From the IMG/VR virus record IMGVR_UViG_3300031521_000011, positions 64,001 to 128,000 of that record: DNA of 64,000 nucleotides; one strand, 5' to 3'. Shown in pieces: positions 1,332 through 26,760 of the stretch (the first letter of the stretch is position 1; every line of letters starts with the position of its first letter). The stretch comes from a virus. Position numbers and translations under genes: made by a program. Below the pieces are notes generated by a model that saw only the letters and a program-made list of their open reading frames with translations, did no database searches and had not been told where the DNA came from.

Positions 1332-1346
1332 TTTTCTTACTTATAC
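1332..1346 (-). promoter_or_regulatory. phage-specific motif copy 1 (GTATAAGTAAGAAAA)
   Basis: One of five GTATAAGWDAKAAAA copies; directly before the RBS of the 1324 gene. Confidence 0.7.
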
Positions 1347-1375
1347 TTGGATTGATTTTTACTTCATTGTATAAT
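1347..1375 (+). promoter_or_regulatory. sigmaA-type promoter for terminase
   Basis: TTGGAT-17-TATAAT. Confidence 0.6.
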
Positions 1376-1388
1376 AAGTCTGGAAGAG

Positions 1389-3224
1389 GTGGCCTTCGTG
1401 AGTAAAAAAACCAAAGAATTCCTCGAAAAATACGCTGAAGAGGAATACCAGAGGATAAAAGAAGAAGAAGCTTTAAACCAGCAGGCGAATGAAGAAGCGC
1501 AAGCCATGGCTTCTAGTGCTGACGAGCAATACAGCGAATTGAAGTCAAAACGGGTCAATCAGAAATATGAAAACCAAAAGGACGGCAAGCCTCTTATGAG
1601 GAATGTTATCGTCCCTTCGATTTTTGCAGAAGCCACATATCTGCTGGACGGTAGGCCATTGCGGCTCAAAAATAGAAAATACTATCGCTTCATTCACGAT
1701 GCTGACATTACCAATGGCCTATTGAAGACGGCCCGCCAGGTTGAAAAGTCTACAACCTTTTCAGTTAAAATTGCAGACGATACGCTTCTCACGCCATTCG
1801 TTAGGAGTCTATATTATGCACCATTAAATGAACAGGTGAAGATGTTCTCCGAAGATAGACTCGGGCGCCTGTTTGTATATTCTCAGGCCGACGTTATCAA
1901 GAGAACATTCATCCGATCTGCAGACAAGCAGAATGTCTTCAATAAATCTTTCTCAAATGGATCATTGATATATCTTAGACACTGTTACGGCCTAGGCGAC
2001 AATATGCGTGGTCTTTCTGTCAACAACACATACGGAGATGAAATTCAGGATATTGATATCGATGCTATCCCTGTTGTCCAGGAGTGCCAGGCCCACGCAC
2101 ATGACCTAGGCCCCGGCATTATGTCCCGGTGGTTTGCCGGCACGCCAAAGACGTTCTCCAATACAATTCAGGAACTCTGGAATCGAAGCAATCAATGCGA
2201 GTGGATCATCCGCTGCCCGGCGTGTAACCGGGACCAGATTCTTGGATTAGAGAATATCACAGAGCATGCTTACCTATGCAGAAATTCAAAATGCAGAAAG
2301 CCGCTCACTGCTGAAATCATATCTGAGTTTGGACGTTGGTTCAAACTCAATGAATCTTCGGAGACATGGGGATTCCATATCAATCAGCTTATGTCTCCAG
2401 CCATGCCGGTGGAGGAAGTTTTTGCAAAGGTTAATACCTATGATAAGCAGAGGCTATTCAATGAGGTATTGGGTCTTAGTTATGAAAACGCAGAAAAGCC
2501 ATTCCCTCCGACATTACTTGCATATATTTCAGCAAATGATTTGAAAATGATGTCTCAGCCTCAAGGATATTTTAATAACGTTCCCATCTTTATGGGTGTT
2601 GACTGGGGCACTGGAGAGCGCTCCTACACAGTCGTTTATATTGGCGCATATAATAAGGAAGGGCAATGGCAACTTCTGTACACCCACAAGTATCACACTA
2701 AGGAAGAGAATGAGAGAGATTACCAGGTTCGCGACATTGCTCGCTTAATGACAATATTTCATGTCGGATATTGCATCGCTGACTATGGTCACGGCTTTCA
2801 GTCAAATCAGCAATTGAAGAATCTCTTTAAAGAGCGTTTTGATGCCATGTTCTATTCCAGTAGTCTTGGGCAACTCAGAATATATGATTCGCAGAAATCG
2901 CACTGGGTCGTCAACAGAACAAGAACCATTCATGAATACGTGACTGCCCATAAAGAAATGCGAGTTGTCTGGCCGGGTGCAAGCAAAGAGGAGATCGAAT
3001 TTCTTTATGAACACCATCTGGCTGAGCAGACGGAATATAAATCCATGCGTCCAAAAGCAGGACAAAATATCCTAATAACCAGAAGTGAAGAGATGTACTA
3101 CTCTCACCCTGCAAGTTCTCCGGATGATGGTATGCATGCTGGCGTGTATGCATATACGGCTTCTTTGATTAAGCCGGCCGGCGGCGCTTCACAATACGGT
3201 TTCGCCGGGGCCGTATCGAGGTAG
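1389..3224 (+). CDS. terL: terminase large subunit (gpA-like)
   Basis: Variant Walker A LLKTARQVEKST, Walker B GDEIQD, GTPK coupling motif, CPAC...CRNSKC Zn motif, RNase H-like nuclease MGVDWG...PDDGMHA. Confidence 0.9.
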   Translation: MAFVSKKTKEFLEKYAEEEYQRIKEEEALNQQANEEAQAMASSADEQYSELKSKRVNQKYENQKDGKPLMRNVIVPSIFAEATYLLDGRPLRLKNRKYYRFIHDADITNGLLKTARQVEKSTTFSVKIADDTLLTPFVRSLYYAPLNEQVKMFSEDRLGRLFVYSQADVIKRTFIRSADKQNVFNKSFSNGSLIYLRHCYGLGDNMRGLSVNNTYGDEIQDIDIDAIPVVQECQAHAHDLGPGIMSRWFAGTPKTFSNTIQELWNRSNQCEWIIRCPACNRDQILGLENITEHAYLCRNSKCRKPLTAEIISEFGRWFKLNESSETWGFHINQLMSPAMPVEEVFAKVNTYDKQRLFNEVLGLSYENAEKPFPPTLLAYISANDLKMMSQPQGYFNNVPIFMGVDWGTGERSYTVVYIGAYNKEGQWQLLYTHKYHTKEENERDYQVRDIARLMTIFHVGYCIADYGHGFQSNQQLKNLFKERFDAMFYSSSLGQLRIYDSQKSHWVVNRTRTIHEYVTAHKEMRVVWPGASKEEIEFLYEHHLAEQTEYKSMRPKAGQNILITRSEEMYYSHPASSPDDGMHAGVYAYTASLIKPAGGASQYGFAGAVSR

Positions 3225-3230
3225 GCGCTA

Positions 3231-3259
3231 TTGCCTTTGCGGATAATTGACAGTATAAT
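3231..3259 (+). promoter_or_regulatory. sigmaA-type promoter
   Basis: TTGCCT-17-TATAAT. Confidence 0.7.
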
Positions 3260-3268
3260 TGATGAGAG

Positions 3269-4318
3269 GTGAGCGAAATGCCATTATCTATGCTCGATGC
3301 TTTGAAAGATATGAAGGTACAGGATGTTTCTCCTGTCAGTGTTGACTCCCCCATGACTAAGTCAAAAATGAGGGGCGCTTTTGCTGCAAAGGTTGAGGCG
3401 TGGGCTAATCAGATTCTGAAGGATTATTTTGGTCACCAAATGGACCTCAATACATTAATTGCAAACATAGCTCAGAAGAACAATCTTTCATCCGAACAGA
3501 TCAGCCGTATCATTGAAGAAGTTAACAGCGAAGTTTACCTCACAGAATATGAGAAGTCAAAAGGCAAGCCGAATCGGGAGGTTAAGTTCGTTATCGCTGA
3601 ACTTCCCAAGATAAAAGACTTGATGGGCAACAACGCTAAAGCAAATCAGCAGCCGGTGAAGGAGCCTGACGTTGGAGGTGTAGAAACTAAAATGGACAAA
3701 AAAGCAAACATGTTTGAGGATGATGGTGACAAATTAAGCTTCCTCAATTACACGACACATGACACATCCGGACTCGCGGAAGACAAGAGAGTTCCACGGG
3801 AAGAGTATCTTCGCAGAACCCTCGCAGATAAAGTAGCGGCGGTTTACAGTGAATACGAAGCAGCTTTCCTTGAACATGGTTCAGACCTTGATTGCATGGC
3901 AGATGCCCTGATTGGGTATGAGAAGTTGGGCCATGATGCAGTTGAGATCTTCACAAAGATCTGCAACGATGCAGAGCTCCAGATCAAGTATCAGTACCCG
4001 ATTATCAAGGCCACCACTGAAAAGATCGCCAGCTTGGTTGAAGAGCGGCACCTGCATGAATCATTCTCCATTAACCTGCAGCCTGTGGATTTCTTGCAGC
4101 AAGAGAAGGGTCTTTCCCTTGGAAAACATTCACTTCTCAAGCAAGCGCGTGAGGATCAGAACAATTCCAACAAGGAACTACCGAATGTGAAGACGAACAA
4201 GAAGCTCATCAAGGGTTACAAGGATCTGGTTCAGATGGCGAAGAAAGTCCAGCAAAGTCAGAGCGCTGTAGAGGCGGCAACAGCGAAAAAAGAAAAGATT
4301 GCATCTATCCTTGAGTAG
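3269..4318 (+). CDS. putative internal head protein carrying KxA motifs
   Basis: Next to terminase; helical; motifs DKKAN, DKVAA, EKIAS (twice), LKQAR. Confidence 0.55.
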   Translation: MSEMPLSMLDALKDMKVQDVSPVSVDSPMTKSKMRGAFAAKVEAWANQILKDYFGHQMDLNTLIANIAQKNNLSSEQISRIIEEVNSEVYLTEYEKSKGKPNREVKFVIAELPKIKDLMGNNAKANQQPVKEPDVGGVETKMDKKANMFEDDGDKLSFLNYTTHDTSGLAEDKRVPREEYLRRTLADKVAAVYSEYEAAFLEHGSDLDCMADALIGYEKLGHDAVEIFTKICNDAELQIKYQYPIIKATTEKIASLVEERHLHESFSINLQPVDFLQQEKGLSLGKHSLLKQAREDQNNSNKELPNVKTNKKLIKGYKDLVQMAKKVQQSQSAVEAATAKKEKIASILE

Positions 4319-4329
4319 TTCTTGAGCAG

Positions 4330-4358
4330 TTGCATTTTCCTTTTTTCTGTTGTATCAT
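4330..4358 (+). promoter_or_regulatory. sigmaA-type promoter
   Basis: TTGCAT-17-TATCAT. Confidence 0.6.
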
Positions 4359-4413
4359 TGATGAAGTAAAGCAATGTCAATAAAATACCAAAATATCGAG
4401 GAGGAATAAAATC

Positions 4414-5208: not shown

Positions 5209-5243
5209 TCCAGGCATATAGGTTATCAGCAGAATTCCTTTCT

Positions 5244-7100: not shown

Positions 7101-7361
7101 ATGGCCGGGACTCAAGCAAATAAAATTCTAGGGCCTATCCGCGAGGCGGCCCTATCCCAGAAGACAATCATACTCGAATACCGTGATGCCGATGGCAAGG
7201 TAACACAGCGGGAGGCGGAGCCTTACGAAATCAACGACAAGGGGCTCTATGCCTTTGCTTTGAATCGTGATGCGATTCGACTGTTCAAGATCGACAATAT
7301 TATCAGTGTTCGCAACACCGGACATCCTTTCATACCACGGTTCCCAATCAAAATCACATGA
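7101..7361 (+). CDS. stand-alone WYL-domain protein
   Basis: IILEYRDADGKVTQREAEPYEI...LYAFALNRDAIRLFKIDNI matches the WYL pattern. Confidence 0.85.
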   Translation: MAGTQANKILGPIREAALSQKTIILEYRDADGKVTQREAEPYEINDKGLYAFALNRDAIRLFKIDNIISVRNTGHPFIPRFPIKIT

Positions 7362-9507: not shown

Positions 9508-11829
9508 ATGGATGTTAAGGAACCAACATTTAGAGCAATGAGCATGAGGGAATTCTCAGCAATCGATCCTCAAGCAAAATCGATTGTGGATTCTTATGGT
9601 GTGGCTGTACCTAAGTCTGCCGCCAGAGAAGAAGAAGGCATGAGCAAGTTTGCCTCATTCCGTCAGAACCTGGTACAGGACCCATACCCATCGCCATTCC
9701 TAAATCTTTCCGATACTAAAATTCCGAACAAGATGTCAGAGTTGTTTGAGCTCTGCCGTTATTTCTATATGTTCGACCCACTCATCGCCGGCGCCATCAA
9801 TTCTTTGGCGACGTTCCCGGTGACAAACCTATATCTCGATGAGAGCAAGATGGCCGACAAGGCCAAGGTGGGCGCTGATGGAAAGAAGACTGGCGTTAAG
9901 GACGATAGTCCGCAGCTTAAAACATATAAAAAGACGCTGTTTGAAAACATCAACCTCAACAAGTTGCTGATTGAGATCGGCATAGATTATTGGTTGTATG
10001 GCAACTGCTTCATTTTCGGCGAGTTCTGGACCAACCCAGATACCAAACAGAAGGAATGGCGGCATGTCGTGAGACTCGATCCGAGTCGCATGATTATCGA
10101 CCATAACGAAGCCACCCGTGAAATCAAGTATAAATGGATGATCCCTGAGAAAATCAGGCGCATCGTTACAATGAAGAAACCCATGAGCGAGTATGAAAAG
10201 ATACCCGATCTGGTAAAGCGTGCTGTCACAAAGAACGAAGCGCTGGTTATCAACCCAAACAATATTTTCCATTTTAGCCGTCCGACGGACAGTATGGGAG
10301 ATACGGTTTGGGGTACGCCGGTAATTGCTAATGTCATGAAACTTCTGATGTACAGAAACGTCATGAGGCAGGCCCAAGAGGCTATCGCTCGGGAGCATAT
10401 CGTTCCTTTCCGCATATATTACTTCGAGAGAAACGCTCAATCCGATCCGATGGTCAACTGGGGCGGCGTCACAGCTGATTTTGCAGCCGAGTTGAACAAA
10501 TCCTCAAAAGACCCAAATTACAAGGTCATCTCCCCTCTGCCGGTTAATGTATTGAACTTGGGCGGCAATGGCCGGGCGCTGATGCTTACACCGGAAATCG
10601 AGCAGGTCCAGGGTGAGATTCTGGCCGGCATGAACGTACCTAGAGAATTTATCTTTGGTGGAGTTACATGGTCGGGCAGCAGCATCTCCCTGAAGATTCT
10701 CGAAAATCAATTTATAACCTATAGGTTATTAATACAGGGATTCTTGAATTTCCTTGTCAAGAATATGGCCAAGGTACGGAATGAATGGCATTCAGAGGAA
10801 GACAACGATGCAATTCCGTCTATCCATATGCAAGATTTGAAAATGCAGGATGACGTTCAGCAGAAGCAGCTCATCGTTCAGATGAACCAAGCTAACAAAC
10901 TTCCTGATGAGCAGCTCTATAAGGCTATGGACATGGATCCTGAAAAAATTGTCGCAGGTCTTGAGGCTGAGGCAATAAAGAGGATAGAGACAGATAAGAA
11001 AATGCAGATCCTCAGGATTGATGCAAATGAGGAAGTGCAGGAAGCAGATATTACCGCGCAAGTAAAACTAGCTCTCTTCAAGGAGAGATTGAGAATTAAG
11101 ATGTCTCAATCTACAGATGAGGTGGAGCGAAACGTTGCAATGCAGATGTTCGGTATGGGGGCAACTCCACAGCCACAAGTTGACGCAATGGGCAATCCGA
11201 TACCCGGACCGGTAGGGCCCGGGGGAGCGCCGGGAGCGCCGCCGGCAGGCCCGGGTGGAGCTCCGGGTACAGACCCAACAGCGCCGCCCGCCGGCCCTGG
11301 ACAACCAATGGCTCCTACGGTAGCAATGGCAGACGCCGGTGATGTTCAAGACCCTGCCGCTGGAAAAGATAAGGCAAATGTGCCGGACCAAATAGATTCT
11401 GTGAATGTCGGCGACACCAAAGATATTGATGCTGAGATTCAAAGAATCTCAGCCATGCCAGATAAGCAAAGAGCTGCAGCTTTAACTCAACTTCCAGCCG
11501 CGCAACAAAAGGCAATTGCAATGAGGATGGAAGCCATGAAAAGCCGCGAGAATTATGGCAAGGGATATGCAGATGCCCAAGCCCTCGCAGAGCGCATCGT
11601 AGCAATGCCTGAGCGTCAACAGGAGGCTGCGCTGAACACTATCCCTGTACAGATGAGGGATCGTGTCATGGTCTTTGTAGAGCAGCTACAGATGCAACAG
11701 CAGGATGACCAAAAGGCACAGCAAGTACAGCAAGGCCAGGCACAGCAAGGCCAGGGCCCGGCGACAGTTGATATGCGTCCAATGCCTGAACAAAAACCAC
11801 CTCGAAGGAAGAGTTTGAACGGAGGTTGA
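9508..11829 (+). CDS. portal protein with long Pro/Gly/Gln-rich C-terminal extension
   Basis: PLIAGAINSLATFP, DYWLYGNCF, LDPSRM, IFHF..., WGTP, ILAGMNVPREFIFGG are portal-like; head-module position. Confidence 0.85.
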   Translation: MDVKEPTFRAMSMREFSAIDPQAKSIVDSYGVAVPKSAAREEEGMSKFASFRQNLVQDPYPSPFLNLSDTKIPNKMSELFELCRYFYMFDPLIAGAINSLATFPVTNLYLDESKMADKAKVGADGKKTGVKDDSPQLKTYKKTLFENINLNKLLIEIGIDYWLYGNCFIFGEFWTNPDTKQKEWRHVVRLDPSRMIIDHNEATREIKYKWMIPEKIRRIVTMKKPMSEYEKIPDLVKRAVTKNEALVINPNNIFHFSRPTDSMGDTVWGTPVIANVMKLLMYRNVMRQAQEAIAREHIVPFRIYYFERNAQSDPMVNWGGVTADFAAELNKSSKDPNYKVISPLPVNVLNLGGNGRALMLTPEIEQVQGEILAGMNVPREFIFGGVTWSGSSISLKILENQFITYRLLIQGFLNFLVKNMAKVRNEWHSEEDNDAIPSIHMQDLKMQDDVQQKQLIVQMNQANKLPDEQLYKAMDMDPEKIVAGLEAEAIKRIETDKKMQILRIDANEEVQEADITAQVKLALFKERLRIKMSQSTDEVERNVAMQMFGMGATPQPQVDAMGNPIPGPVGPGGAPGAPPAGPGGAPGTDPTAPPAGPGQPMAPTVAMADAGDVQDPAAGKDKANVPDQIDSVNVGDTKDIDAEIQRISAMPDKQRAAALTQLPAAQQKAIAMRMEAMKSRENYGKGYADAQALAERIVAMPERQQEAALNTIPVQMRDRVMVFVEQLQMQQQDDQKAQQVQQGQAQQGQGPATVDMRPMPEQKPPRRKSLNGG

Positions 11830-15200: not shown

Positions 15201-18200
15201 GCCTTGGTGAGATGGAGATGAGGGTGCTGCAGGCCAATCAGGTACCATTCAATATCCTTGAAACCACCACCCTTAAAGGTGATGGCGCTGGCTTTGCAAA
15301 GGATCGCCTTGATATCTTCAGGGCTATGATCAACGGCAGTCCAGAGCATCTCAATAAACTGCGGGACAAGTCCGGCGTACCGGAGTCCTTACGCATCCTG
15401 AAGGACAAGATGTTCGTTATGGGTATGGACGTTAAACCTCTCAATAGGGGCAAAACGGTTCATTCATTGAACGATACATTTAGTGAGCTGATGGTCCTTC
15501 CAACAAGGGATGAAGACATCCTGCGTACAATCGGAAAGAGCAAACGCGTTTATAGTTCAGAGACCTTCCAGTCCACAGACAGGCGGCACGAGAAGTCTGA
15601 TAAGGCTGTACCTGGCGGACTGTATGATCCGGACATCTTCGGAAAAGATGAAGACACGAAGAATGGCCAGGTTGCACGTGAAGCCAGGAGTAAATGGGGC
15701 TACATCGAGCTGGCTACCTATATGCCAAATCCTGTATTGATAGAACAGGCTCAGTATAATCCATATGCATCACTTCTCGGGATGGGTAAGGATAAACTCT
15801 TAAGCCTGATGTCAAAAGACTATGTACTCATCACAAACCCCGGCGATAGCGGTCTTGGTGCAAACACAATCGTTTCTTCAAAGTTAGCTACAGACCTTAT
15901 GATGAATGAGGACAAGCACTTTGAATACAAGGCTGGCGGAGAAGCCTTGATGTATCTTCTGTCAAAGATCAATGTGAACAAGGAACTTGTGGCTACCGAG
16001 GCTGCATTGAAAGCCGCGAAGCTCGACAAAAAAGATGCACTCTTTAAGAAATATTCAGTGCTCAAGATGCTGCAAAAGAACAACATGCAGCCCGGCGACC
16101 TGATGACAAAGATTGTTCCTGTCACACCAAAATACCTGCGCCCGCGCAATGCTCAGGGGCAACAGGTTATAGAGAATGGTCTGACTAAGGTCTACAGTAA
16201 CCTGGTTGATGTAAATGAAAACTCGCGCCTAGCCTTTGAGTCTGGTACGCCAGATATCAAGGCAGAACAAAGCAATGGCCTCTATCGTTCCATGAAATAT
16301 CTCTATGGCGGATTTAAAAATGATCGCTATGTTGATAAAAAGAAAAAGGAAGAATTGGGCGGCATCCTTGATCTCATCGGAAACAAAGAGGGCTTGGTTC
16401 GCGATAAGATGCTGGGCAAGCGCGTTGACTACTCTGGCCGCGCCGTAATCGGTGTCGATCCCACATTGAAGATCGATGAGATTGGTATCCCGGCTGACAT
16501 CGCAAAGACCACTTACAAGCCATTTATCATTAAAGAACTAATCCATCGCGGATATGTTCCAATGGGCGCTGATGGAGAGCGTATGGCGAGGGAAAAGATT
16601 CTTCGATTTGATGACGATGTCAAAAAAGTTCTCGATGACATTGTCAAAGATCGCCCAATCCTCGTAAACCGTGCGCCATCACTTCATAAGTTCGGCATAC
16701 AGGCTATGCGTCCGGTCATTCGCACGACGCAGGATGGACAAGTCGTCAGGAATATCCAACTTAACCCCATGGTCGTAACCGGCTTTGGCGCTGACTTTGA
16801 TGGAGACCAGATGGGTGTGCACGTTCCGCTGAGCGACAAGGCCGTCGAAGAAGCCAGAAACATGATGATGCCCAGCGATAATCTTATTAATCCAACCAAC
16901 GGCAAGATGATCCTTGAAATCCGTCATGAGATGACATTGGGTATATACTACCTGACAATGAATCCAGAACAGACAACTGGAAAGAACATCACCTACTCTA
17001 CATATAAACAGCTTCGCGCAGACTACGAATCCGGCAAGATCAAAACCCGTCAGGCTGTTACCCTTAATGGCAAAATGACCACGGCCGGTCAATGGCTGTT
17101 CTTTGGAATACCAGGGCTCCAGGCAAAGTATCGTAACAAGTATTTCGGACAGACAATGAGCGACAAGTCCCTGAAGGACATGCTACGCGAGATCTATGAC
17201 GACATTACATTTGGCCGCAATGAGACGATGGGCACAATTGATCTATCAAATCTGATGGATAACATCAAGGACCTTGGATTCATGGCATCTACTCGCTCCG
17301 GTCTTAGCATCGGAATCAAAGATCTGGAGTTCCCAGAGAAGTATCAGGATGATATTTTTGAAAGGGCTAGAAAGATCGATGAGCGCCTGAAGGGCGATGA
17401 GGCGGGACTCATTGGCGCATACCAAACACTGGAAGGTGAAGTTGAGAGCGAGCTCAAGGCTGGTGCCATGGGTAAGGATAATCCCGTTACTGCCATGCTG
17501 CAGTCTGGTGCCAGGGGCGACGCCGGCCAGATTCGCCGTATGGGTGGCCTTGTTGGTGTTGGCCGTGATATTGAAAATCATGCAGTCACACCAATTAGAT
17601 CTTCGCATATGACCGGCCTCTCTCCGGGTGAGTACTGGTTGCACAGCTACGACTCCCTGAAGGGCATGGCTGACCGCGCACTGAATACAGAAGCACCAGG
17701 CACGCTTACCAGGGAGCTCTGGTCCGCATATCAAGACAAGGTTATCTCAGAACCGGACTGTCATACAACAAAAGGAATCCTCATCAACAAGGAAGGCAAA
17801 ATTGTCGGACGCTATGCATCAAAAGACATTACAAGCGCCGATGGATCCATAACATACGTGAAGGCTGGACAACCAATCACACAGATAACGCAAACCGCTA
17901 TCGGCAGAGACAAGACCATCAAGTTTATCCAGATCCGCTCACCAGCCACCTGCGCAACCGTCAATGGTCTGTGCCAGAAGTGCTATGGCTGGGAGACCGG
18001 AAGGCCACAACCCCCGAAGCTTGGATACCCAGCCGGCGTTATTGCATCTCAGGCCATCGGCGAGCCGGTGACGCAGATGACGATGAAGACATTCCATGGC
18101 GGCGGCACGTCGTCCAACGTTACGCTTGGCCTGCCCAGAATCCTTGAGATGCTGCACCCTGAGTCATCCAACCTCAACAATATAGCGGTTCTGTCAAAGA

Positions 18201-19144
18201 ATACCGGCAGAGTTGAAGAGATTAAGGATACCGTCAGCGGCACTGATGTTGTTATTGGCAAAAAGAAATACCATATTCCGTTCGATGAGAACGGCAACCG
18301 TAAGCCATTAAGGGTAGTGGTTGGAGATAGTGTTGTTCAGGGTCAGTTCCTTACTGTAGGAAATCTTGATGACCTTGACGCTGCTCGTAAGGACAAGACA
18401 ATGACATCCATTACCAGCGCCCGCCCGGTAGAGATTATGAACTTCGCACCTGATAAGGAAGAAGGACTCAATCAGGCGCAGAATTACATGATTGGCGGCA
18501 TGCAGTACGCAATCGATACCTCCCTGAATAAACAGGACGCTGTTGACCGCCGCCACATCGAGCTGACAGTCGGAAAGCTCACAGAGAATGTCAAAATTAG
18601 CGACTCTGGCGACTCTCCATACATGGATGGCCAAGAAGTCAAACGCAACGTAGCTGACCGTTGGAATGCTGATAATGTGACAATGTCCATCGCCAAACTC
18701 ACGCCAACAGCCAGCATGGATAAGCTTCTTGGAGCTATTGCAGGTGAAACCGTCAAAGATAGAAGCGGACAGATACTTGTAAAGCAAGGTCAGAAGATTA
18801 CCAGAGATATGCTCGGCCCAATCATGCTGGCGACCAGAAACATCAAAGTTACGCCGAGGCCGATCATTTATGTGGCCGAGATGGATTCTCCACAGACGGC
18901 AGCCGATAAGGGCCATGATAACTGGTTCAGCAACCTTGGCCACCAAAACATCGGTAAGCAGCTCTCCAGGGGCGTATCATTCGGTCAAGTGGATAAGCTC
19001 GAAGACCCGCGTGCCCGCATGATGGCCGGCAAGCTCAGTAATATTGGTCAAGAGGGCCATAACTGGTGGGAGAAGTTCAAGAACGGCACAAGCGATTTCG
19101 CAAACACAATCAGTAACAGTCTTCTGGGAATGTTTCAGAAGTAG
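12254..19144 (+). CDS. rpoBC: DNA-directed RNA polymerase, fused beta-beta' single polypeptide (2296 aa)
   Basis: Beta motifs GSYIAGGNER, RIDPVESPE..KIGL, HNDGNRMLMATNQQKQ, GWNYEDG, GDKISGRHGNKG, KLKHKV, QRLGEME, PES. Beta' motifs GGLYDPDIFG, WGYIEL, GKRVDYSGRAVI, NRAPSLH, catalytic GADFDGD (16787-16807), SGARG, C..RSPATC...CQKCYG, QAIGEPVTQMTMKTFH, GLPR. Confidence 0.95.
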   Translation: MNEQDRIRLDREASEMESKVLALVKSKFPMKLQGGILNVSDLKIERPAGLFNLTAQHNLKMDDGSLYGALRGRFNLSNDKGKVIKQTNVQDIISTIPYKTVRGSYIAGGNERTISAQMRQAPGIYTERNGTEVITKIRFNATSELWTSPIMMHYDQSKSKFFLRFKIGNKTLDLSGITFLTDIAGASIGEVKKALGSEAVYIDVMQKHPTFNATLADVYALYFKDEKYDGTAEQVVKLRDRIMEQPNFGNSGEKRVGATVGVASNKLDKNVVLASITKLFAVARNDAEEDSIDDLRFKIVLNDQDFILGELSEGIDEFKNKVNFRSGADNELKFIVASPLDNLDKKIDRFIKADTRNAPQSTGIVEAPETTNPLNLISSTKKITQKGEGGISDEAARNADSARNLQPTAITRIDPVESPESQKIGLVRQLARNARATNGTIVSKFFPVKKGTANIDEENIVELDPFEEYDHHVAFYTPSEITKINNMIAFKKPLVTGRFNGKVMQIPREEIEYIDTSPSDIFGISAALVPFGDHNDGNRMLMATNQQKQSLLLKSSVRQAPYVQVAIDQDKKQTFEGQIGENSNVVRSPENGVVESVDGGHIVIKGESGKRHSLDYYDHFPMNQDNFAHNEVLVKRGDEVKAGQMVAEGWHTKDGKLALGLNARIAYLPYKGWNYEDGVVISREFADRVQTDEMESRDIIVYKDFIGGPGSGVRDKFIETTAQSAGMQKLDKDGIIMPGQEVGPGDILVAMLKPKAPDYDAMRSFSKMIMKGDETEFEDAAQKIGDGEYMQGKVLDVHVLPGGGDPDVRNIIRIRVKMSKTLKIGDKISGRHGNKGTITKILGTKEMPHTEDGRSIDVLFSPLVVPSRKNVGQLLEVNAGLIAEKTGKPYTVYNFDPKEVDNVKNGLIKIGVPDGKMAVIDPKTGKAYENKVTVGNMYILKLKHKVDEKLQSRSFEEGGFNQKYLSPEKSTGEAAGEKANPQRLGEMEMRVLQANQVPFNILETTTLKGDGAGFAKDRLDIFRAMINGSPEHLNKLRDKSGVPESLRILKDKMFVMGMDVKPLNRGKTVHSLNDTFSELMVLPTRDEDILRTIGKSKRVYSSETFQSTDRRHEKSDKAVPGGLYDPDIFGKDEDTKNGQVAREARSKWGYIELATYMPNPVLIEQAQYNPYASLLGMGKDKLLSLMSKDYVLITNPGDSGLGANTIVSSKLATDLMMNEDKHFEYKAGGEALMYLLSKINVNKELVATEAALKAAKLDKKDALFKKYSVLKMLQKNNMQPGDLMTKIVPVTPKYLRPRNAQGQQVIENGLTKVYSNLVDVNENSRLAFESGTPDIKAEQSNGLYRSMKYLYGGFKNDRYVDKKKKEELGGILDLIGNKEGLVRDKMLGKRVDYSGRAVIGVDPTLKIDEIGIPADIAKTTYKPFIIKELIHRGYVPMGADGERMAREKILRFDDDVKKVLDDIVKDRPILVNRAPSLHKFGIQAMRPVIRTTQDGQVVRNIQLNPMVVTGFGADFDGDQMGVHVPLSDKAVEEARNMMMPSDNLINPTNGKMILEIRHEMTLGIYYLTMNPEQTTGKNITYSTYKQLRADYESGKIKTRQAVTLNGKMTTAGQWLFFGIPGLQAKYRNKYFGQTMSDKSLKDMLREIYDDITFGRNETMGTIDLSNLMDNIKDLGFMASTRSGLSIGIKDLEFPEKYQDDIFERARKIDERLKGDEAGLIGAYQTLEGEVESELKAGAMGKDNPVTAMLQSGARGDAGQIRRMGGLVGVGRDIENHAVTPIRSSHMTGLSPGEYWLHSYDSLKGMADRALNTEAPGTLTRELWSAYQDKVISEPDCHTTKGILINKEGKIVGRYASKDITSADGSITYVKAGQPITQITQTAIGRDKTIKFIQIRSPATCATVNGLCQKCYGWETGRPQPPKLGYPAGVIASQAIGEPVTQMTMKTFHGGGTSSNVTLGLPRILEMLHPESSNLNNIAVLSKNTGRVEEIKDTVSGTDVVIGKKKYHIPFDENGNRKPLRVVVGDSVVQGQFLTVGNLDDLDAARKDKTMTSITSARPVEIMNFAPDKEEGLNQAQNYMIGGMQYAIDTSLNKQDAVDRRHIELTVGKLTENVKISDSGDSPYMDGQEVKRNVADRWNADNVTMSIAKLTPTASMDKLLGAIAGETVKDRSGQILVKQGQKITRDMLGPIMLATRNIKVTPRPIIYVAEMDSPQTAADKGHDNWFSNLGHQNIGKQLSRGVSFGQVDKLEDPRARMMAGKLSNIGQEGHNWWEKFKNGTSDFANTISNSLLGMFQK

Positions 19145-19374: not shown

Positions 19375-19671
19375 ATGGACAAGGTGGTAAACAATAAGAA
19401 CGATCTTATCCGAGAGGTGGCCGCCTCTACAGGGATCTCCATCCGCCAGGCGGAAGAGATCATCAATACGTTTCTTGGTATGATGCAACAGAAGGTCTTA
19501 GCTGGACAGGCGATTTCAATCAAAGGTTTCTTTGGCATGAGGTATCTCCGGGCAAGATCCAAAGCTGTTCGTGACTTCGAGAATGGAATTCAGAAGCAAT
19601 CAGGAGATCATCTCCGCCCAAAATGTAAATTCAGTGAAAGTTTTGTGCAAAAAATAAAGGAAAAAGGGTGA
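19375..19671 (+). CDS. HU/IHF-family DNA-binding protein (divergent)
   Basis: NKNDLIREVAASTGIS...ISIKGFF...RPKCKFS matches the HU/IHF fold. Confidence 0.8.
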   Translation: MDKVVNNKNDLIREVAASTGISIRQAEEIINTFLGMMQQKVLAGQAISIKGFFGMRYLRARSKAVRDFENGIQKQSGDHLRPKCKFSESFVQKIKEKG

Positions 19672-20008: not shown

Positions 20009-22097
20009 CTTCTCTTCCGAGAAACTTTTCCACCACGCTCAGGCTCCTTGTTATTGTCTTTTCGTAATTGAAGCTGTTCATGATGCGCGACGCATACTTC
20101 GCCGACTTGATTCTCCCATCACCGAATGCTATTACGCATTTATCGGTGGTGGTTCTGACGCCACGCCCCACAGCCTGCTTGAGAGCGATTATCATGCTTG
20201 GTATGGAATATTTCCAGAAAGCCCCGGCCTCTTGTGCAAGAACCTTGGCCACCGGGTCCTCTGGGCTGGCGAAGGGTAGTTTATCGAGGAATACACAGCG
20301 TAGACTATCACCGGCAACGTCTACACCCTCAAATAGGGATCTTGTGCCAATTAAGACAGAGTTTGTGTCGTGGGCAAAATCCTTCAGGAGTTTATCCTGT
20401 GGAGCGTCGCCCTGCATAAACACCGTCAGATTCGTTGATTGCCTCAGGCGCACTGCTGCTGCTTTCATATTGTAGACGCTGGTGAATAGACCAAGGACAC
20501 CACCCCCACAGGATCGCACGAGGTCCAGAAAGTTGGAAAGCATGTTGGGCAGGAAGTTTGGCGCATTGCCGTCCAGCGCCCCTTCTGGAAGATACCAAAG
20601 CTGTTGATACTCCAGGTCAAACGGTGAATCAGCAATCATCTCTCTGGCAAAATCCACACCCAACTCAGTCTTGATGTAATTGAATGATTGGCCGGCGGCC
20701 AGAGTAGCTGATGTAAGAATTGTGGTCAGATCTCCATGCTTATCATCCGTTTTAGCATTGCGCATAAAGAAATTCTGACGCATGTAATCATCGACCTTAA
20801 CCGGTTTCGCTCGCAAGGAAATCATGTTGTTGTTTTCCATCTGAACATAGAATGCTGAATTTTTACCTGTCTGAGTACAGATGGCTCTAATATTGCTTAC
20901 GGCCTCAATACCTCGCATAAGGACGCCATTAAGAATTGCACCGACAGCACGCTCGTCGGAATGACTATCCGCAGGCTCACCAAACTCTTCATCATCATCA
21001 GTGAAAAATTCTGGAGAAATCTCATTCTTCATCTCATTGATCTCATTCACAAATACTCTTAATTCATAGAGGAAGTATTCATGCTCCAAAGGAATCGAGA
21101 GGGTTACGGTTCTGGTCGTTGCGGATAATTGAGTATTATTTTGCATGTAATCTGTGAGGTTTAGGAAGAAGGCCTCTGATTTCTTTACCAGATTCCGAAT
21201 TCCCGTCCTATCAACCTTGAAAATATTGGGGTACTTGTTTTCCGCTGCAGACAGCCGGCGCATGAAATTCAGGAACAGATAGTGAGATACTTTCTTTTCT
21301 TGGAAATTTCGGCTTATCTCGGCGATGTTGTGCGCCTCATCACATATCAGCAAATCATAAGGCGGAAGAATTTTTCCTTCTGTCTCAATGTCGGCGAAGA
21401 GGAGATGGTAGTTCGTGATGATAACGTCTGCACCCCGGCATACTCTTTTGGCTCTGGTGTGAAAGCATTCGTTCTGGAATTCACATGACCGGCCGAGGCA
21501 TTCTTCACTATCCGAGCAAGAGAAATTATTCCAGATATCAAAGTTCGGCTTGAAGCTAAGTTCTGCCATGTCTCCGGTTTTGGTATCGATGGCCCATTTC
21601 ACGATGAGGGACATTTCCACCTTATTTTCCGTAAATGACATTTGAACACCGTCAAAGTTGTTTGCGACGGTATCCTGGAGTCTGTGTTTGCATAGGTAGT
21701 TTTGTTTTCCTTTCATATATGCAACACGGACAGGCGCATCTATAACCTTCTCTATGATTTGCGCAATCAACGGCGCGTCTTTGTGGTAGAGCTGTCCCTG
21801 GAGTGCGATTCCGTTGGTAGAGATGACGGCTGTGCGCCCGTGGGTCTTAGCAAAATACATGACAGAGAAAAGATACACGAACGTTTTTCCGAATCCACAA
21901 GGACCTTCAAGCAAGAAGGGTTCACCGTCCTGCAGAGCTTCCATTGCCTTCCTAACCCCTACTATTTGCTCAGGGCGTTCCTTATAATCCATTTTATATT
22001 CGTAGATAATGCCCTCATGCCCAAATACCTTGTCGACAATTGTATCTATGTCATCCGCGTCGCTGACGACTCTCACGTCGTCTGGAAGTACTTCCAT
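19992..22097 (-). CDS. dinG: DinG/YoaA-family Fe-S helicase (SF2)
   Basis: Q motif ERPEQ, Walker A EGPCGFGKT, Fe-S cysteines (YLCK...CLGRSC...C), TNYHLL, DEAH, TSATL, LFTS, EGVD, KLPF, QAVGRGVR. Start ATG 22097 after GGGAGGG. Confidence 0.9.
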   Translation of the reverse strand: MEVLPDDVRVVSDADDIDTIVDKVFGHEGIIYEYKMDYKERPEQIVGVRKAMEALQDGEPFLLEGPCGFGKTFVYLFSVMYFAKTHGRTAVISTNGIALQGQLYHKDAPLIAQIIEKVIDAPVRVAYMKGKQNYLCKHRLQDTVANNFDGVQMSFTENKVEMSLIVKWAIDTKTGDMAELSFKPNFDIWNNFSCSDSEECLGRSCEFQNECFHTRAKRVCRGADVIITNYHLLFADIETEGKILPPYDLLICDEAHNIAEISRNFQEKKVSHYLFLNFMRRLSAAENKYPNIFKVDRTGIRNLVKKSEAFFLNLTDYMQNNTQLSATTRTVTLSIPLEHEYFLYELRVFVNEINEMKNEISPEFFTDDDEEFGEPADSHSDERAVGAILNGVLMRGIEAVSNIRAICTQTGKNSAFYVQMENNNMISLRAKPVKVDDYMRQNFFMRNAKTDDKHGDLTTILTSATLAAGQSFNYIKTELGVDFAREMIADSPFDLEYQQLWYLPEGALDGNAPNFLPNMLSNFLDLVRSCGGGVLGLFTSVYNMKAAAVRLRQSTNLTVFMQGDAPQDKLLKDFAHDTNSVLIGTRSLFEGVDVAGDSLRCVFLDKLPFASPEDPVAKVLAQEAGAFWKYSIPSMIIALKQAVGRGVRTTTDKCVIAFGDGRIKSAKYASRIMNSFNYEKTITRSLSVVEKFLGREDDMPF

Positions 22098-22797
22098 TAT
22101 TAACCCTCCCTGGTTCATTCCTTTTTTTGTAGATTTGTTCAAACCAATAGTCAAATACGACGCACGAATCTCCTTCGTCGTCTGTTTGTGGAGCGAAACC
22201 ATACGCTCCATACTTCGCTACCATCTTTTCCCTAAGAGCTGCTTTAGCTACATCTGGGAGCGCCCTTAATTCACTCTCGGTATGGCGTGAGGCATATTCC
22301 ATCACCAACCGGCTGGTATTGTGAGGCGCCCGGGCCACCTGAACATCATATTTCAAAACAGGTATCCCATATGTGCCAGCGACTCCCTCAAGGATCCCCA
22401 TGATTTCACCAAGCAACACAGATGTGAGTATCCCATGAAATATCTTATTCTTTTCTGCGATAACCAATTCAGGCACAACGTTTTGAATAAAAGAAGATAT
22501 CTGCCTGCTTATATCATCTTTTATGAAATTGTTCCTGGCTGTCCGGACCTCAACATCGCGTCTTTCCTTTTCAGACTTTGAGATGCTGGTCTCGCCCTCC
22601 ATCCAATAAGTATTTAACAGTGTACCATCACGGCCTGCAGGTAAATACTTCTGGGAGTGCATATATCCAAGCTCTGTTGGTGAATAGTTTGGCGGCATAA
22701 TAGGAGCACTTAAAACTCTAATAATAGTTTCTCCATCAATTTCAGAAACCGTTACGCCTATACACGCCGAAGATAAGTCAAAAGATATGATTTTCAT
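22051..22797 (-). CDS. RuvC-like Holliday junction resolvase
   Basis: N-terminal IISFDLSSACIG, VIAE, C-terminal DDEGDS acidic catalytic pattern. Confidence 0.75.
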   Translation of the reverse strand: MKIISFDLSSACIGVTVSEIDGETIIRVLSAPIMPPNYSPTELGYMHSQKYLPAGRDGTLLNTYWMEGETSISKSEKERRDVEVRTARNNFIKDDISRQISSFIQNVVPELVIAEKNKIFHGILTSVLLGEIMGILEGVAGTYGIPVLKYDVQVARAPHNTSRLVMEYASRHTESELRALPDVAKAALREKMVAKYGAYGFAPQTDDEGDSCVVFDYWFEQIYKKRNEPGRVNNGSTSRRRESRQRRG

Positions 22798-22833: not shown

Positions 22834-22862
22834 ATGAGGATGGACATAATGTCCATCCTCAT
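22834..22862 (-). terminator. stem-loop terminator
   Basis: ATGAGGATGGACA-loop-TGTCCATCCTCAT followed by T-rich sequence on the - strand. Confidence 0.65.
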
Positions 22863-22879
22863 AAAACAAATGATTCGGT

Positions 22880-23788: not shown

Positions 23789-23842
23789 TTTTCGGAGGCC
23801 TCCTAAGTTTATTTGGGTCTTCATTATACCACGATTTTGTTG

Positions 23843-24124
23843 TTATTTCAGCAAATCTTTAAAAGGTTTGCTGGGTTTGAATGCCGGCGATTGATGAGCG
23901 GGGACGTTGATTTTTTCTCCAGTATGAGGGTTCCGGCTGTCACGCGCTTTTCTTTCGGCGCCTCTGAATGTGCCCAACCCGGCCAAGGTTACAATGTCGC
24001 CTGACTTAACATGACTCTGTATTGCATCATCGGTTGCCTTGAATACATCTTTGACACAAGCTTGAGAAAATCCTGTCTTGTCAGCAACCTCCTTCGCAAG
24101 GTCTGCGCTGCTGATCTTTTCCAT
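23843..24124 (-). CDS. hup: HU histone-like DNA-binding protein
   Basis: GLGTF...RKARDSRNPHTGEKINVPA...PAFKPSK; start MEKISS with AGGAGGT RBS. Confidence 0.9.
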   Translation of the reverse strand: MEKISSADLAKEVADKTGFSQACVKDVFKATDDAIQSHVKSGDIVTLAGLGTFRGAERKARDSRNPHTGEKINVPAHQSPAFKPSKPFKDLLK

Positions 24125-24165
24125 ATACTCACCTCCTTTACTAAATATAAATGCTTCCGGAAGCA

Positions 24166-24180
24166 TTTTATTTCTTATAC
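24166..24180 (-). promoter_or_regulatory. phage-specific motif copy 2 (GTATAAGAAATAAAA)
   Basis: Upstream of HU, followed by the palindrome AAATGCTTCCGGAAGCATTT. Confidence 0.7.
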
Positions 24181-24232
24181 GAAATGTGAAAAAAACTCCA
24201 TATTTTCCTATTTTAAACAACACATATGTCAA

Positions 24233-24652
24233 TCAAAAATTTTCTTTGATGTGGTCGATACAGTTTTCACACACCTTGTTGTTTTGGACAGGATGGAGTT
24301 CTGTATCATTTCGACCACATAGGCAGCACTTGAGCTGGAGTACACGAAGCCCTATTGCAATCTCACCATTAAAGATGAGAATGTCCATTTGGCTACCCTC
24401 TCTGATGTTCATACGGGTTCGTATTGCTGAAGGTAGAACAAAACGATTTAAAGAATCAACTTTGTGAATGTACTGAATTTCCTGCATGAACTTTTGCAGT
24501 GATGTATTTACAACCTTGAGTTTGACAATTTCCTCATCTTCATAGAAGGTGATACTGACTTCTTCGCGACGAAAATCTCGCACACCCAGAGGAATAGCAA
24601 TCCGTCCAAGATTATCAATTCCCTTGGAAACCCCTATTGATCTATAATCCAT
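24233..24652 (-). CDS. AbrB/SpoVT-family regulator, tandem AbrB domains plus C-terminal Zn ribbon
   Basis: IDNLGRIAIP and VDSLNRFVLPSAIR repeats; CCLCG...VCENC. Confidence 0.8.
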   Translation of the reverse strand: MDYRSIGVSKGIDNLGRIAIPLGVRDFRREEVSITFYEDEEIVKLKVVNTSLQKFMQEIQYIHKVDSLNRFVLPSAIRTRMNIREGSQMDILIFNGEIAIGLRVLQLKCCLCGRNDTELHPVQNNKVCENCIDHIKENF

Positions 24653-24667
24653 ACTCCACCCCCGTAA

Positions 24668-24682
24668 TTTTATTACTTATAC
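24668..24682 (-). promoter_or_regulatory. phage-specific motif copy 3 (GTATAAGTAATAAAA)
   Basis: Upstream of the AbrB-like gene. Confidence 0.7.
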
Positions 24683-24690
24683 GAAGTGCA

Positions 24691-24718
24691 AAAAAAGAGG
24701 GGGATCCCCCTCTTTTTT
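24691..24718. terminator. palindromic intrinsic terminator
   Basis: AAAAAAGAGGGGGATCCCCCTCTTTTTT, a perfect palindrome. Confidence 0.8.
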
Positions 24719-24724
24719 AAAATT

Positions 24725-25342
24725 CTATTCCCCAACGTGCTTCATCTTTGACGTAGCACACTTTGGACAATACATGTCGTTATTCTCATTATAATACATA
24801 TCCGGTATGTCATTTTTGGCAATCTCGGAATGCTTACAGTTGACGCACGTATAGCGTATATTTGTATTTAATGGTCCTTTTGTTAAGAGATTTGATGGAG
24901 ACTCAGCGAATACAGCCAAAAGATTCTCATTTGTATAATACCAAATGAAGCATGCTTCATTGATAAGTTTCTTGAATCCATTTGTGTATTCCACTGCCAG
25001 CTTATCCATCTCTGATTCTTGGCCAGATATCAGAGACTCGAAATAATCCTTTTTTTCATGTGACAATATAGGATTCTGAAGCATAGATTCATATGTAATC
25101 CTAAGAGTTATTTGCTCTACTACCTCACATGGAACTGCAATCAAAGTGAAATCAAACGGTAAATTAATATAATTGTGATTACTGATAAATGTCCATTTAA
25201 GTGCGTCTGGTATTCTCGGAAGAATACTTGATTCTTTTTCTTTCTTCTCAAGATCGATAGACGCTTCTGTCCAGAACATACTTTGAAGTATATCCATCTT
25301 GTCATAGTATAGCATCCCTTGTTGTATTATCATATTCCTCAC
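24725..25342 (-). CDS. hypothetical protein with C-terminal Zn ribbon
   Basis: CVNC...CPKC. Confidence 0.6.
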   Translation of the reverse strand: MRNMIIQQGMLYYDKMDILQSMFWTEASIDLEKKEKESSILPRIPDALKWTFISNHNYINLPFDFTLIAVPCEVVEQITLRITYESMLQNPILSHEKKDYFESLISGQESEMDKLAVEYTNGFKKLINEACFIWYYTNENLLAVFAESPSNLLTKGPLNTNIRYTCVNCKHSEIAKNDIPDMYYNENNDMYCPKCATSKMKHVGE

Positions 25343-25348
25343 TTCCTC

Positions 25349-25374
25349 AAAAAAGAGGAGTCTTGCGACTCCTC
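25349..25374 (-). terminator. intrinsic terminator
   Basis: GAGGAGTC-GCAA-GACTCCTC-TTTTTT on the - strand. Confidence 0.75.
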
Positions 25375-25379
25375 CATTA

Positions 25380-25394
25380 TTTTATCACTTATAC
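25380..25394 (-). promoter_or_regulatory. phage-specific motif copy 4 (GTATAAGTGATAAAA)
   Basis: Intergenic, upstream of the 25342 gene. Confidence 0.65.
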
Positions 25395-25398
25395 CATC

Positions 25399-26163
25399 CT
25401 AGGCCATTGGCGGCATTTTTGGAACGGGTTTGAGATACAGATCCCTGTCCTCCTTCAGCATTAAGAATGTCCAAACCATTTTCATAGCCTCTGGGCGATT
25501 CTCTTCCATGACGGCGGCATACTGCGACCAGAACTTATCCATATCATACTTTGGAAGGCAATCCTTGCAGAGAGCAACGTTAGATTCGTACACTCCGAAT
25601 TCGTTGTTGCATGACGGGCAGCGCAGGATGTGCATCCTATCTGTCAAGAATGAGCGGACCTGCTTTGTGGACCACCAGTCCATTGCATCAATAAATTTAT
25701 TTATTCCGATGCGCTCGATTTCGTCCTGACCAAATCCGCTCATCTTCTCAAACTTGATAAGGCCCCGGCGAAGGAAAGCCTTCCATATGACGTCATATTG
25801 CTGACTTGATCGATGATGGAGCTTTACGACATCGGACTTTATGAGTCCGTCGAGCGGACCACCCTCAAGCCCTGTTGGCTCCTTTGGCGACTCTGGCAGC
25901 GTGCTGATATTGGCCATCTTTTTATTGGCTTCAGCCAGATCAGATCTTTTGATATTATACCTGGGTATATGATCCTCAGGCCGCTTGATCCTATGGACAT
26001 TCTTGGCATCAATTTCAGATATGCCTTCTACGAGGTCTGCAGCTTCAGTGCCAATAAATGAAAGATCATCTTCCACTATAACCTTACTGTCACTAGGAGC
26101 GCTATATGCTTGAACATCAGGAGATTCTTCACCGGCGTCCTTCATAAGTTCATCTGTTTCCAT
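25399..26163 (-). CDS. hypothetical protein with Zn finger
   Basis: CPSC...CKDC; ATG 26163 with AGGAGGG RBS. Confidence 0.6.
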   Translation of the reverse strand: METDELMKDAGEESPDVQAYSAPSDSKVIVEDDLSFIGTEAADLVEGISEIDAKNVHRIKRPEDHIPRYNIKRSDLAEANKKMANISTLPESPKEPTGLEGGPLDGLIKSDVVKLHHRSSQQYDVIWKAFLRRGLIKFEKMSGFGQDEIERIGINKFIDAMDWWSTKQVRSFLTDRMHILRCPSCNNEFGVYESNVALCKDCLPKYDMDKFWSQYAAVMEENRPEAMKMVWTFLMLKEDRDLYLKPVPKMPPMA

Positions 26164-26208
26164 TCTCAAACCCTCCTCATTACGTGGTGTTTACAGTTTA
26201 CCATAATT

Positions 26209-26240
26209 CAAAAAAAAGACAAGGGGCGCTTTCGCGCCCC
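26209..26240 (-). terminator. intrinsic terminator
   Basis: GGGGCGC-GAAA-GCGCCCC followed by TTGTCTTTTTTTT. Confidence 0.8.
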
Positions 26241-26247
26241 AGTTGTT

Positions 26248-26721
26248 TTATTTGTCCGCCGGCACATTCCCGAGGTTCTGATCAATCTCATTCAATGCAG
26301 CTTCAGTTTCAGCTGCGATTGCCTTGTCTTCCTCGAGGACAGATACCTGGGCGGGTTTACGACGACCACCCTTGGGAGCGGCGGGAGCGGCGGGAGCTAC
26401 CGGAACTTCAACCACAGGAACTGTGGCGGGAGCAGCGGCTGGAGCTTCAACAACTGTAGCTGTAACAGGAACCGCAGCGGGAGCTACAGGGGTAGCGGGA
26501 GCTGCTACCGGAGCGGGAGCTGCTTTAGCAGCGACCTTTGCAGCATCCGCTGCCTTCTTGGCTTTGTATGCGTCGAGTCTGCTCTGGAGACCCTTGGAGA
26601 TTCCGCCATTCCGGACAATCTTGCCTTCAGCATAGGCATTCCCTGAAACACAACCGAGACCGAAACCGACCAGAGCGGATCCACCAGCAATGAGACCGAC
26701 AACCAACTTAGGATTCAACAT
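26248..26721 (-). CDS. membrane-anchored Ala/Pro-rich protein
   Basis: N-terminal hydrophobic Gly-rich helix (LVVGLIAGGSALVGFGLGC), then an A/P/V linker; AAGGAGG RBS. Confidence 0.65.
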   Translation of the reverse strand: MLNPKLVVGLIAGGSALVGFGLGCVSGNAYAEGKIVRNGGISKGLQSRLDAYKAKKAADAAKVAAKAAPAPVAAPATPVAPAAVPVTATVVEAPAAAPATVPVVEVPVAPAAPAAPKGGRRKPAQVSVLEEDKAIAAETEAALNEIDQNLGNVPADK

Positions 26722-26745
26722 GACAAAGACCCTCCTTAGATAATT

Positions 26746-26760
26746 TTTTATATCTTATAC
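26746..26760 (-). promoter_or_regulatory. phage-specific motif copy 5 (GTATAAGATATAAAA)
   Basis: Upstream of the first gene of the - strand block. Confidence 0.7.

Follow-up and report, generated by a model that had tools for sequence, protein, structure and literature searches.

A candidate phage-specific promoter class for the non-structural genes of a tailed phage that encodes a single-chain RNA polymerase and a sigma factor

What is the 15-base motif with a TATAAG core that recurs ahead of non-structural genes in an uncultured tailed phage, and which RNA polymerase (RNAP) reads it? The phage is known from IMG/VR record IMGVR_UViG_3300031521_000011, a 168,244-bp genome that is complete according to CheckV and is labelled G000 in our comparisons; it encodes a single-chain beta-beta' RNAP and a sigma-70-family protein of its own. 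We analysed a window of 64,000 nucleotides (nt), bases 64001-128000 of this record, and give positions in window coordinates unless they are marked as genome positions. An earlier note on this DNA had reported five copies of the motif, all on the - strand, and had proposed that they are promoters read by the phage RNAP together with its sigma factor. A scan of the window returns the same five copies, an exact match in position and strand, and each of them lies between genes:

1332-1346, - strand: motif copy 1, GTATAAGTAAGAAAA, which abuts the GGAGG and ATG of a gene of 73 amino acids (aa)
24166-24180, - strand: motif copy 2, GTATAAGAAATAAAA, followed by a small hairpin and then an HU-like gene
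24668-24682, - strand: motif copy 3, GTATAAGTAATAAAA, the genome-wide consensus, 15 nt past a terminator and 15 nt ahead of the ATG of an AbrB/MazE-like gene
25380-25394, - strand: motif copy 4, GTATAAGTGATAAAA, which begins 4 nt past the preceding gene's stop codon, with a terminator-like hairpin downstream
26746-26760, - strand: motif copy 5, GTATAAGATATAAAA, the first signal of a - strand block, just downstream of iterons and an AT-rich region

The gap between motif and start codon, previously given as 8-42 nt, was roughly right: we measure 7, 41, 15, 46 and 24 nt for copies 1 to 5, the fourth value falling to 37 nt if an alternative GTG start is used.

The pattern GTATAAGWDAKAAAA matches five times in the window, always on the - strand, against no match in 100 dinucleotide-preserving shuffles. 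The bare 7-mer GTATAAG occurs six times where 5.9 are expected and so is not enriched, although five of these occurrences lie within the - strand copies of the complete motif. Across the whole genome, GTATAAGNNNNAAAA is found 28 times on the - strand and never on the + strand, with 0.13 copies expected from base composition; if one mismatch is allowed, about four more sites appear, intergenic and on the - strand, and the + strand stays empty. The strand and intergenic bias that the earlier note had wanted checked in the full genome thus holds there (28 against 0 by strand, with effectively all 28 between genes), and the restriction to one strand recurs in two relatives, G001 and G002. The only two copies that nominally fall inside open reading frames (ORFs) are gene-call artefacts, one caused by a dubious 44-aa ORF and the other by an over-extended TTG start. 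Base 10 is invariably A and base 11 is T in 26 of the 28 genome copies, though the search pattern fixed neither, so the motif is better written GTATAAGnnATAAAA, of which GTATAAGTAATAAAA is the commonest form; the degenerate consensus given before had captured the motif and understated its conservation. In these 28 copies 13 of the 15 positions carry all the information, and nothing similar appears at -35.

Our gene set for G000 consists of our own crude calls and comprises 212 genes, 139 on the - strand and 73 on the + strand, which also carries the RNAP gene. Measured against these calls, 26 of the 28 copies lie at most 70 nt from the next - strand start (median 21 nt), ahead of a Shine-Dalgarno (SD) sequence and an ATG. 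A typical unit runs from an intrinsic terminator through 10-15 nt to the motif, and from the motif through 8-12 nt to GGAGG and the ATG; by inspection, a hairpin with a T-run stands directly ahead of the motif in half of the copies (14/28). The motif also heads 7 of the 10 - strand gene blocks that begin within the contig, divergent junctions included. One such junction is that of copy 1 (1346-1332, -), which sits back to back with the -35 element of the + strand terminase promoter; with no upstream transcript to process there, a promoter would be required.

Four features together make us highly confident that GTATAAGnnATAAAA is a promoter: it is strictly oriented with the genes, it stands at block starts and behind terminators, its distance to the SD sequence is fixed, and it is deeply conserved. 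The promoter reading of the earlier note is strongly supported by position, by orientation and by persistence of the motif in very distant relatives. The motif marks the predicted start of about 30 early and replication gene units in G000 and also occurs in distant relatives. The units led by the five window copies, with the hairpins next to copies 3 and 4, are the following:

1103-1324, - strand: gene under copy 1, 73 aa, with a weak sigma-70 region-4-like helix-turn-helix (Pfam E 0.006, below the cut-off)
23843-24124, - strand: gene under copy 2, an HU-like DNA-binding protein whose G001 orthologue is also motif-led
24233-24652, - strand: gene under copy 3, an AbrB/MazE-fold protein
24725-25333, - strand: gene under copy 4, 202 aa, function unassigned, with a zinc-ribbon-like C-terminus
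26248-26721, - strand: gene under copy 5, 157 aa, function unassigned, with a hydrophobic N-terminus followed by an Ala/Pro-rich stretch
24698-24710, - strand: terminator hairpin directly upstream of copy 3 (-23.6 kcal/mol, z -3.3)
25354-25375, - strand: strong terminator-like hairpin and U-run downstream of copy 4 (-15.7 kcal/mol, z -3.8)

Copy 4 precedes the hairpin at 25375-25354 rather than trailing it, a detail absent from the earlier note. Motif-led genes are mostly unconserved, only two of them having an orthologue in G001, and one of these two, the HU-like gene, is motif-led in both genomes.

We propose, with confidence only a little above even, that GTATAAGnnATAAAA is the core of a phage-specific promoter class for the - strand non-structural genes, read by the phage sigma and most likely on the phage RNAP. 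The choice of reader rests on three lines of evidence: the base at -7, the co-occurrence of sigma, RNAP and the GTATAAG core in relatives, and a modelled interface between the two proteins.

Sigma-70 holoenzymes flip the A at -11 and the T at -7 into sigma region 2 (PMC7598289). At the motif sites the base at -7 is G and never T, in 28 of 28 copies in G000, 38 of 38 in G001 and 8 of 8 in G002, which sets them apart from the TATAAT of sigma-A promoters; a sigma-70 consensus scan passes over all five window copies because this T is absent. The -35 region of G000 holds at most 0.33 bits at any position, with no TTGACA at 17 +/- 1 nt, and pooling G000, G001 and G002 reveals only a 43-57% T/A bias (TTTTAA-like), so that the earlier statement that the copies share no -35 element stands, bar this weak T-rich bias. 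A TG lies directly ahead of the invariant G in about 11 of the 28 G000 copies; G001 and G002 have TcT at this place.

The other strand is organised differently, as its terminase promoter illustrates:

1347-1375, + strand: host-type promoter of the terminase-portal-RNAP operon, TTGGAT (1347-1352), 17 nt, TATAAT (1370-1375)

This strand encodes the terminase large subunit, portal, tail fibres, major head protein, tail sheath, baseplate J and the fused RNAP, and its genes have TATAAT-type -10 boxes upstream, in some cases paired with TTGACA at a 17-nt spacing; TATAAT, with or without TTGACA, is also found for the virion-strand genes in G001 and G002. The G at -7, combined with these canonical promoters on the opposite strand, argues against the host holoenzyme as the reader of the motif. 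The - strand, beyond the HU-like and AbrB-like genes of the window, encodes an NAD-dependent ligase, a polymerase, helicases, a primase-helicase, an SbcCD-like exonuclease and NAMPT elsewhere in the genome, and the claim that the motif stands ahead of non-structural genes is borne out, the virion genes lying opposite. With its 13 conserved bases the motif resembles the AT-rich, highly conserved element of about 10 nt that characterises jumbo-phage early promoters; the genes behind it are replication genes and small genes with little conservation.

The two proteins that we propose as readers are both encoded on the virion strand:

12254-19144, + strand: single-chain beta-beta' RNAP, 2296 aa, the only one in the genome, directly after the portal gene
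50137-50979, + strand: the sole sigma-70-family protein of the genome, 280 aa, encoded in the baseplate module and bearing an N-terminal EIEKLA tag (discussed below)

The existence of a phage sigma, which had been assumed, is now verified. Pfam has no match on the protein at 50137-50979, and Pfam Sigma70_r2 has none over the whole genome; among members of the family, eight match r3, three match r4 and one matches r4_2. A phmmer search against PDB chains reaches SigA at E 0.007, which a three-row profile improves to E 1e-4 over regions 3-4, and the 'sigma factor' family phrog_351 matches the protein at E 5e-4. An AlphaFold2 (AF2) model built from 66 sequences has a predicted local distance difference test (pLDDT) score of 89.9, and Foldseek aligns it with sigma-A, sigma-S and sigma-B chains over their full length (probability 1.00, 245-280 aligned columns), verifying at the level of the model a fold with sigma domains 2, 3 and 4. 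The family is broad, with 71 clusters at E < 1e-10 in an exhaustive profile search, and tblastn of the protein against GenBank phages returned no match. A homologue is present in all five complete RNAP-bearing relatives tested, and the gene stays in the baseplate module in G001, in G002 and in a Logan contig. One relative, G040, encodes two homologues (L203 and 10656-11387).

Two other sources of a specificity factor were considered and rejected. The 73-aa sigma-4-like protein at 1103-1324 lies below threshold at E 0.006 and has no blastp counterpart in G001 or G002, and for the conserved - strand proteins at 22051-22797 and 25399-26163, among others, Pfam gave nothing relevant to a sigma factor.

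A complex model of the sigma with RNAP residues 1085-1545 scores 0.74, against 0.00 for the best control; the mark applied to such models is reached by 58 of 80 solved complexes and by 2 of 110 mismatched pairs. Agreement among the three runs is 29% of contacts or more and the partner's pLDDT is 64 or more; the modelled contacts place sigma residues 36-77 on RNAP residues 1300-1346, the clamp helices. Since sigma-core complexes have already been solved, this placement of region 2 on the clamp helices amounts to a likeness to known holoenzymes, and may be a memory of them, rather than proof of binding.

Relatives of the phage were reached by an exact scan of IMG/VR with the consensus 15-mer and then with a three-row RNAP alignment; a related-loci search with the single RNAP protein as query found none. 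The 15-mer scan led to G001 (166,758 bp, with terminal repeats) and G002 (a 102-kb fragment), both with many copies. In G001 the stricter pattern GTATAAGNNATAAAA matches 28 times and the looser GTATAAGNNNNAAAA 38 times; G002 has eight matches with either pattern. The matches of each genome all lie on one strand. Both encode the fused RNAP (43% identity in G001, 38% in G002) opposite the motif strand, as in G000. The distance between these genomes is considerable: 54 of the 212 G000 proteins find a blastp match in G001, at a median identity of 34%, and the G+C contents of G000, G001 and G002 are 46%, 38% and 35%.

The three-row alignment added 41 further loci, among which the fragments G008, G009 and G011 share the same motif. 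G006, a complete genome of 160.5 kb with 38% RNAP identity and 32% G+C, does not have the identical motif; it carries about 26 copies of a variant, GTATAAGAYATTAAA, on one strand, opposite the RNAP gene and in the same place relative to SD and ATG. In G040 (210 kb, 27% RNAP identity), GTATAAG is distributed 45 to 12 by strand, and intergenic sites read GGTATAAGAA ahead of SD and ATG, the ATAAAA block being absent. Three other distant genomes show no strand bias of GTATAAG, and the distant RNAP matches in GenBank, from Vibrio, Salmonella, Yersinia and Rhizobium phages, have 24-28% identity. As judged from these comparisons, the GTATAAG core tracks the phage lineage over very wide divergence, and the block downstream of it differs by sub-lineage. 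This lineage-bound core, together with the constant pairing of sigma and fused RNAP, suggests that the phage sigma reads the motif, most simply on the phage core. As a separate observation, the G001 copies at 55840, 62589, 71338 and 108374 each supply the left arm of a perfect hairpin of 16-22 bp with a T-rich run behind it, and the right arm changes in step with the two motif positions that vary; such hairpins may terminate read-through RNA and spare RNA that starts at the promoter.

In the mechanism that we favour, TATAAG would serve as the -10 element, spanning -12 to -7 and preceded by an invariant G at -13; transcripts would begin in the invariant A run and have leaders some 20-25 nt long. 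The G at -7 and the missing -35 element would exclude host sigma-A from these sites, which the phage sigma-70-family protein would recognise instead, most likely while bound to the single-chain beta-beta' RNAP. The motif would then drive the host-takeover, DNA-binding and replication genes of the - strand, and the virion, RNAP and sigma genes, with their canonical TTGACA/TATAAT promoters, would be left to the host holoenzyme.

Several observations weigh against this proposal. It leans on home-made gene calls, and three of the ten - strand blocks lack the motif. About a quarter of the copies, copy 4 among them, directly precede a terminator-like hairpin, which would also act on transcripts begun at that very motif. 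The sigma keeps region 4 though no clear -35 element is conserved, and the complex model cannot tell the phage core from a host core. There is also a difficulty of timing, in that both the RNAP gene and the sigma gene belong to virion modules and have host-type promoters ahead of them; the two proteins would either be made first by the host enzyme or be delivered in the virion.

The strongest competitor keeps the phage sigma and changes its partner: injected with the DNA or made early, the sigma would direct host core to the motif, and the phage RNAP would perform some other task or join later. In its favour, the sigma carries an EK(I/L)A tag common to the major head protein and small virion-strand proteins, and the RNAP does not; its nearest structural matches are the cellular sigma-A, sigma-S and sigma-B; and phage sigmas that redirect host core are usual in phages without an RNAP of their own (PMC7824862). 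We nonetheless consider it unlikely, given that the sigma and the fused RNAP occur together in 5/5 complete relatives tested, that the GTATAAG core follows the RNAP lineage across hosts and across genomes of 32-46% G+C, that the model seats the sigma on the phage clamp helices, and that a conserved 2300-aa polymerase would be left without a function. A reading with no phage factor at all, in which the unmodified host sigma-A holoenzyme uses the motif as a strong early promoter of the -10-only or extended -10 kind, is much harder to sustain. The TATAA, the upstream TG at about 11 of 28 copies and the weak TTTTAA-like bias at -35 would suit it, as would the use of host RNAP for early genes by many phages. 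The critical T at -7 is, however, replaced by G in 74 of 74 sites in three genomes, the other strand of the same genomes uses canonical TATAAT with or without TTGACA, and the eight bases after the hexamer are conserved far beyond what sigma-A needs and change with phage lineage in G006.

Least probable of all, to the point of being barely credible, is that the motif acts in RNA, as a processing site, 5' stabiliser or translation signal, or as an operator for an AbrB- or HU-like regulator. Its fixed spacing to the SD sequence and the G001 hairpins with their co-varying right arm are what this explanation has to offer, since the motif may be transcribed within read-through RNA. Yet the motif also stands at divergent junctions and after terminators, where there is no upstream RNA, and on this ground we rejected an RNA processing site; it is asymmetric and non-palindromic, no Rfam family matched in the window, and the roughly 139 - strand genes need promoters, with no other shared signal seen.

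How the sigma reaches the cell bears on the timing of the proposed phage-enzyme promoters, and here an N-terminal tag, [ED]K[IVLFYMT][AS], is relevant. Of the 73 proteins encoded on the RNAP strand 17 carry it, compared with 2 of the 139 on the opposite strand, and G001 and G002 repeat this bias; within the sigma family it is found in 28 of 66 members, the figure for background proteins being 8 of 354. Its bearers include the proteins at 32243-33241 and 50137-50979 and many small + strand proteins, with examples such as MEKISMEKIA, MDKVAFYKE.IYKVA, LEKIALEKL (residues 29-37 of the major head protein) and EIEKLA of the sigma; it is absent from the RNAP in all three genomes, G000, G001 and G002. 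Phage internal proteins carry capsid-targeting sequences, and the tag looks like a capsid-targeting or prohead-protease signal, which suggests that the sigma is packaged in the virion. A packaged sigma leaves two options, a virion-delivered holoenzyme or an injected sigma that captures host core. The former is conceivable, if rather doubtful: the sigma would be packed in the capsid and the fused RNAP, whose gene is next to that of the portal, would travel with it, and the injected complex would immediately transcribe the GTATAAG units without host RNAP or new protein synthesis. On the same tentative footing, the virion genes, those of the RNAP and sigma included, would be left to the host sigma-A holoenzyme. 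If true, this would be a 'bring your own polymerase' strategy like those of N4 and phiKZ, carried out by a cellular-type, sigma-dependent single-chain RNAP, and the first virion-borne sigma holoenzyme.

Among known systems, the virion-RNAP early promoters of phiKZ- and AR9-type jumbo phages are the closest functional analogue. They are about 10 nt long, AT-rich and highly conserved, are centred near -10 without a -35 element, and are phage-specific, and they can be detected by bioinformatics upstream of presumed early operons (PMC7598289). RNAPs of the phiKZ type lack a sigma homologue and are divided among four or five polypeptides (PMC7824862). The two systems thus have in common a conserved AT-rich motif, a missing -35 element and a multisubunit-type phage RNAP; the present one differs in motif sequence and encodes a single 2296-aa chain with a true sigma-70-fold protein in place of a split, sigma-less enzyme. 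T4 offers a second comparison: its late promoter, TATAAATA, is read by gp55 with gp33 and the gp45 clamp on host core and drives late structural genes. The corresponding TATAAGTA matches it in 7 of 8 bases, both being -10-only and AT-rich with a TATAA core, and a divergent sigma-family reader in T4 parallels the sigma-family protein proposed here. The present motif, TATAAG(T/A)A, nevertheless precedes non-virion genes, has an additional conserved ATAAAA block and occurs in a phage that encodes its own core enzyme. With bacterial sigma-A -10 and extended -10 promoters it shares the TATAA core, the place relative to SD and ATG and an occasional upstream TG; it departs from them in the invariant G at -7 and -13, the missing -35 element and the conserved discriminator and start region, the canonical form being found on the other strand.

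In N4, an injected phage polymerase reads the early genes and a host sigma-70-type holoenzyme reads the late virion genes, a programme that G000 would resemble only if the RNAP and sigma are delivered in the virion. Enzyme and promoter type differ, the N4 virion RNAP being a single-subunit, T7-like enzyme with hairpin promoters (PMC13492108). The mReC, a Caudovirales lineage with a deeply branching beta/beta' RNAP (Weinheimer and Aylward 2020, PMC7481178), are comparable as tailed phages of about 150-210 kb with cellular-type beta and beta', a likeness by these traits rather than by tree.

Other features of the genome lie outside this argument. The host is probably a member of the Bacillota, judging from the GGAGG sites and the PG_binding_1, SH3_3 and NlpC/P60 domains. 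The phage has two HU-like genes, one at 19375-19671 (+) after the RNAP gene with a 230-nt leader, the other that under copy 2 (23843-24124, -). Between terminase and portal, at 7101-7361 (+), lies a stand-alone 86-aa WYL-domain protein (E 3.6e-10) with 43% identity to its G001 counterpart. At the head of the capsid module, an 847-aa protein (27396-29939, +) has an N-terminal stretch that resembles a head maturation protease (phrog_18299, E 5e-6) and no match over the remainder. Just upstream of copy 5, in a 553-bp divergent intergenic region, iterons TCTCTTGGCA with 21-nt spacing form inverted arrays (26787-26878 and 27101-27212) that flank an AT-rich core and may be an origin or a regulator array; a stretch resembling this region lies at genome 13.4-13.6 kb. 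Several tRNA-like sequences occur between - strand genes at genome 156-167 kb, where motif copies are nearly absent.

Phage-specific promoters are well known, and for tailed phages with a cellular-type beta/beta' RNAP neither such a promoter nor a specificity factor has been described: the words 'sigma' and 'promoter' do not occur in the text of the 2020 paper that defines the mReC (PMC7481178), and the literature that we searched, on TATAAG, on the mReC and on sigma factors with a fused or virion RNAP, describes neither this promoter nor this system. The three elements, namely the 15-base signal, the candidate sigma and the single-chain core, are conserved across a family-level clade, and with all of them identified the system should be open to reconstitution in vitro from two genes and a short DNA template. 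They raise the question of how a sigma factor reads G in place of T at -7, and they suggest an unusual programme in which virion genes rely on host promoters and early genes on the phage enzyme. A compact orthogonal transcription system for Gram-positive hosts could result.

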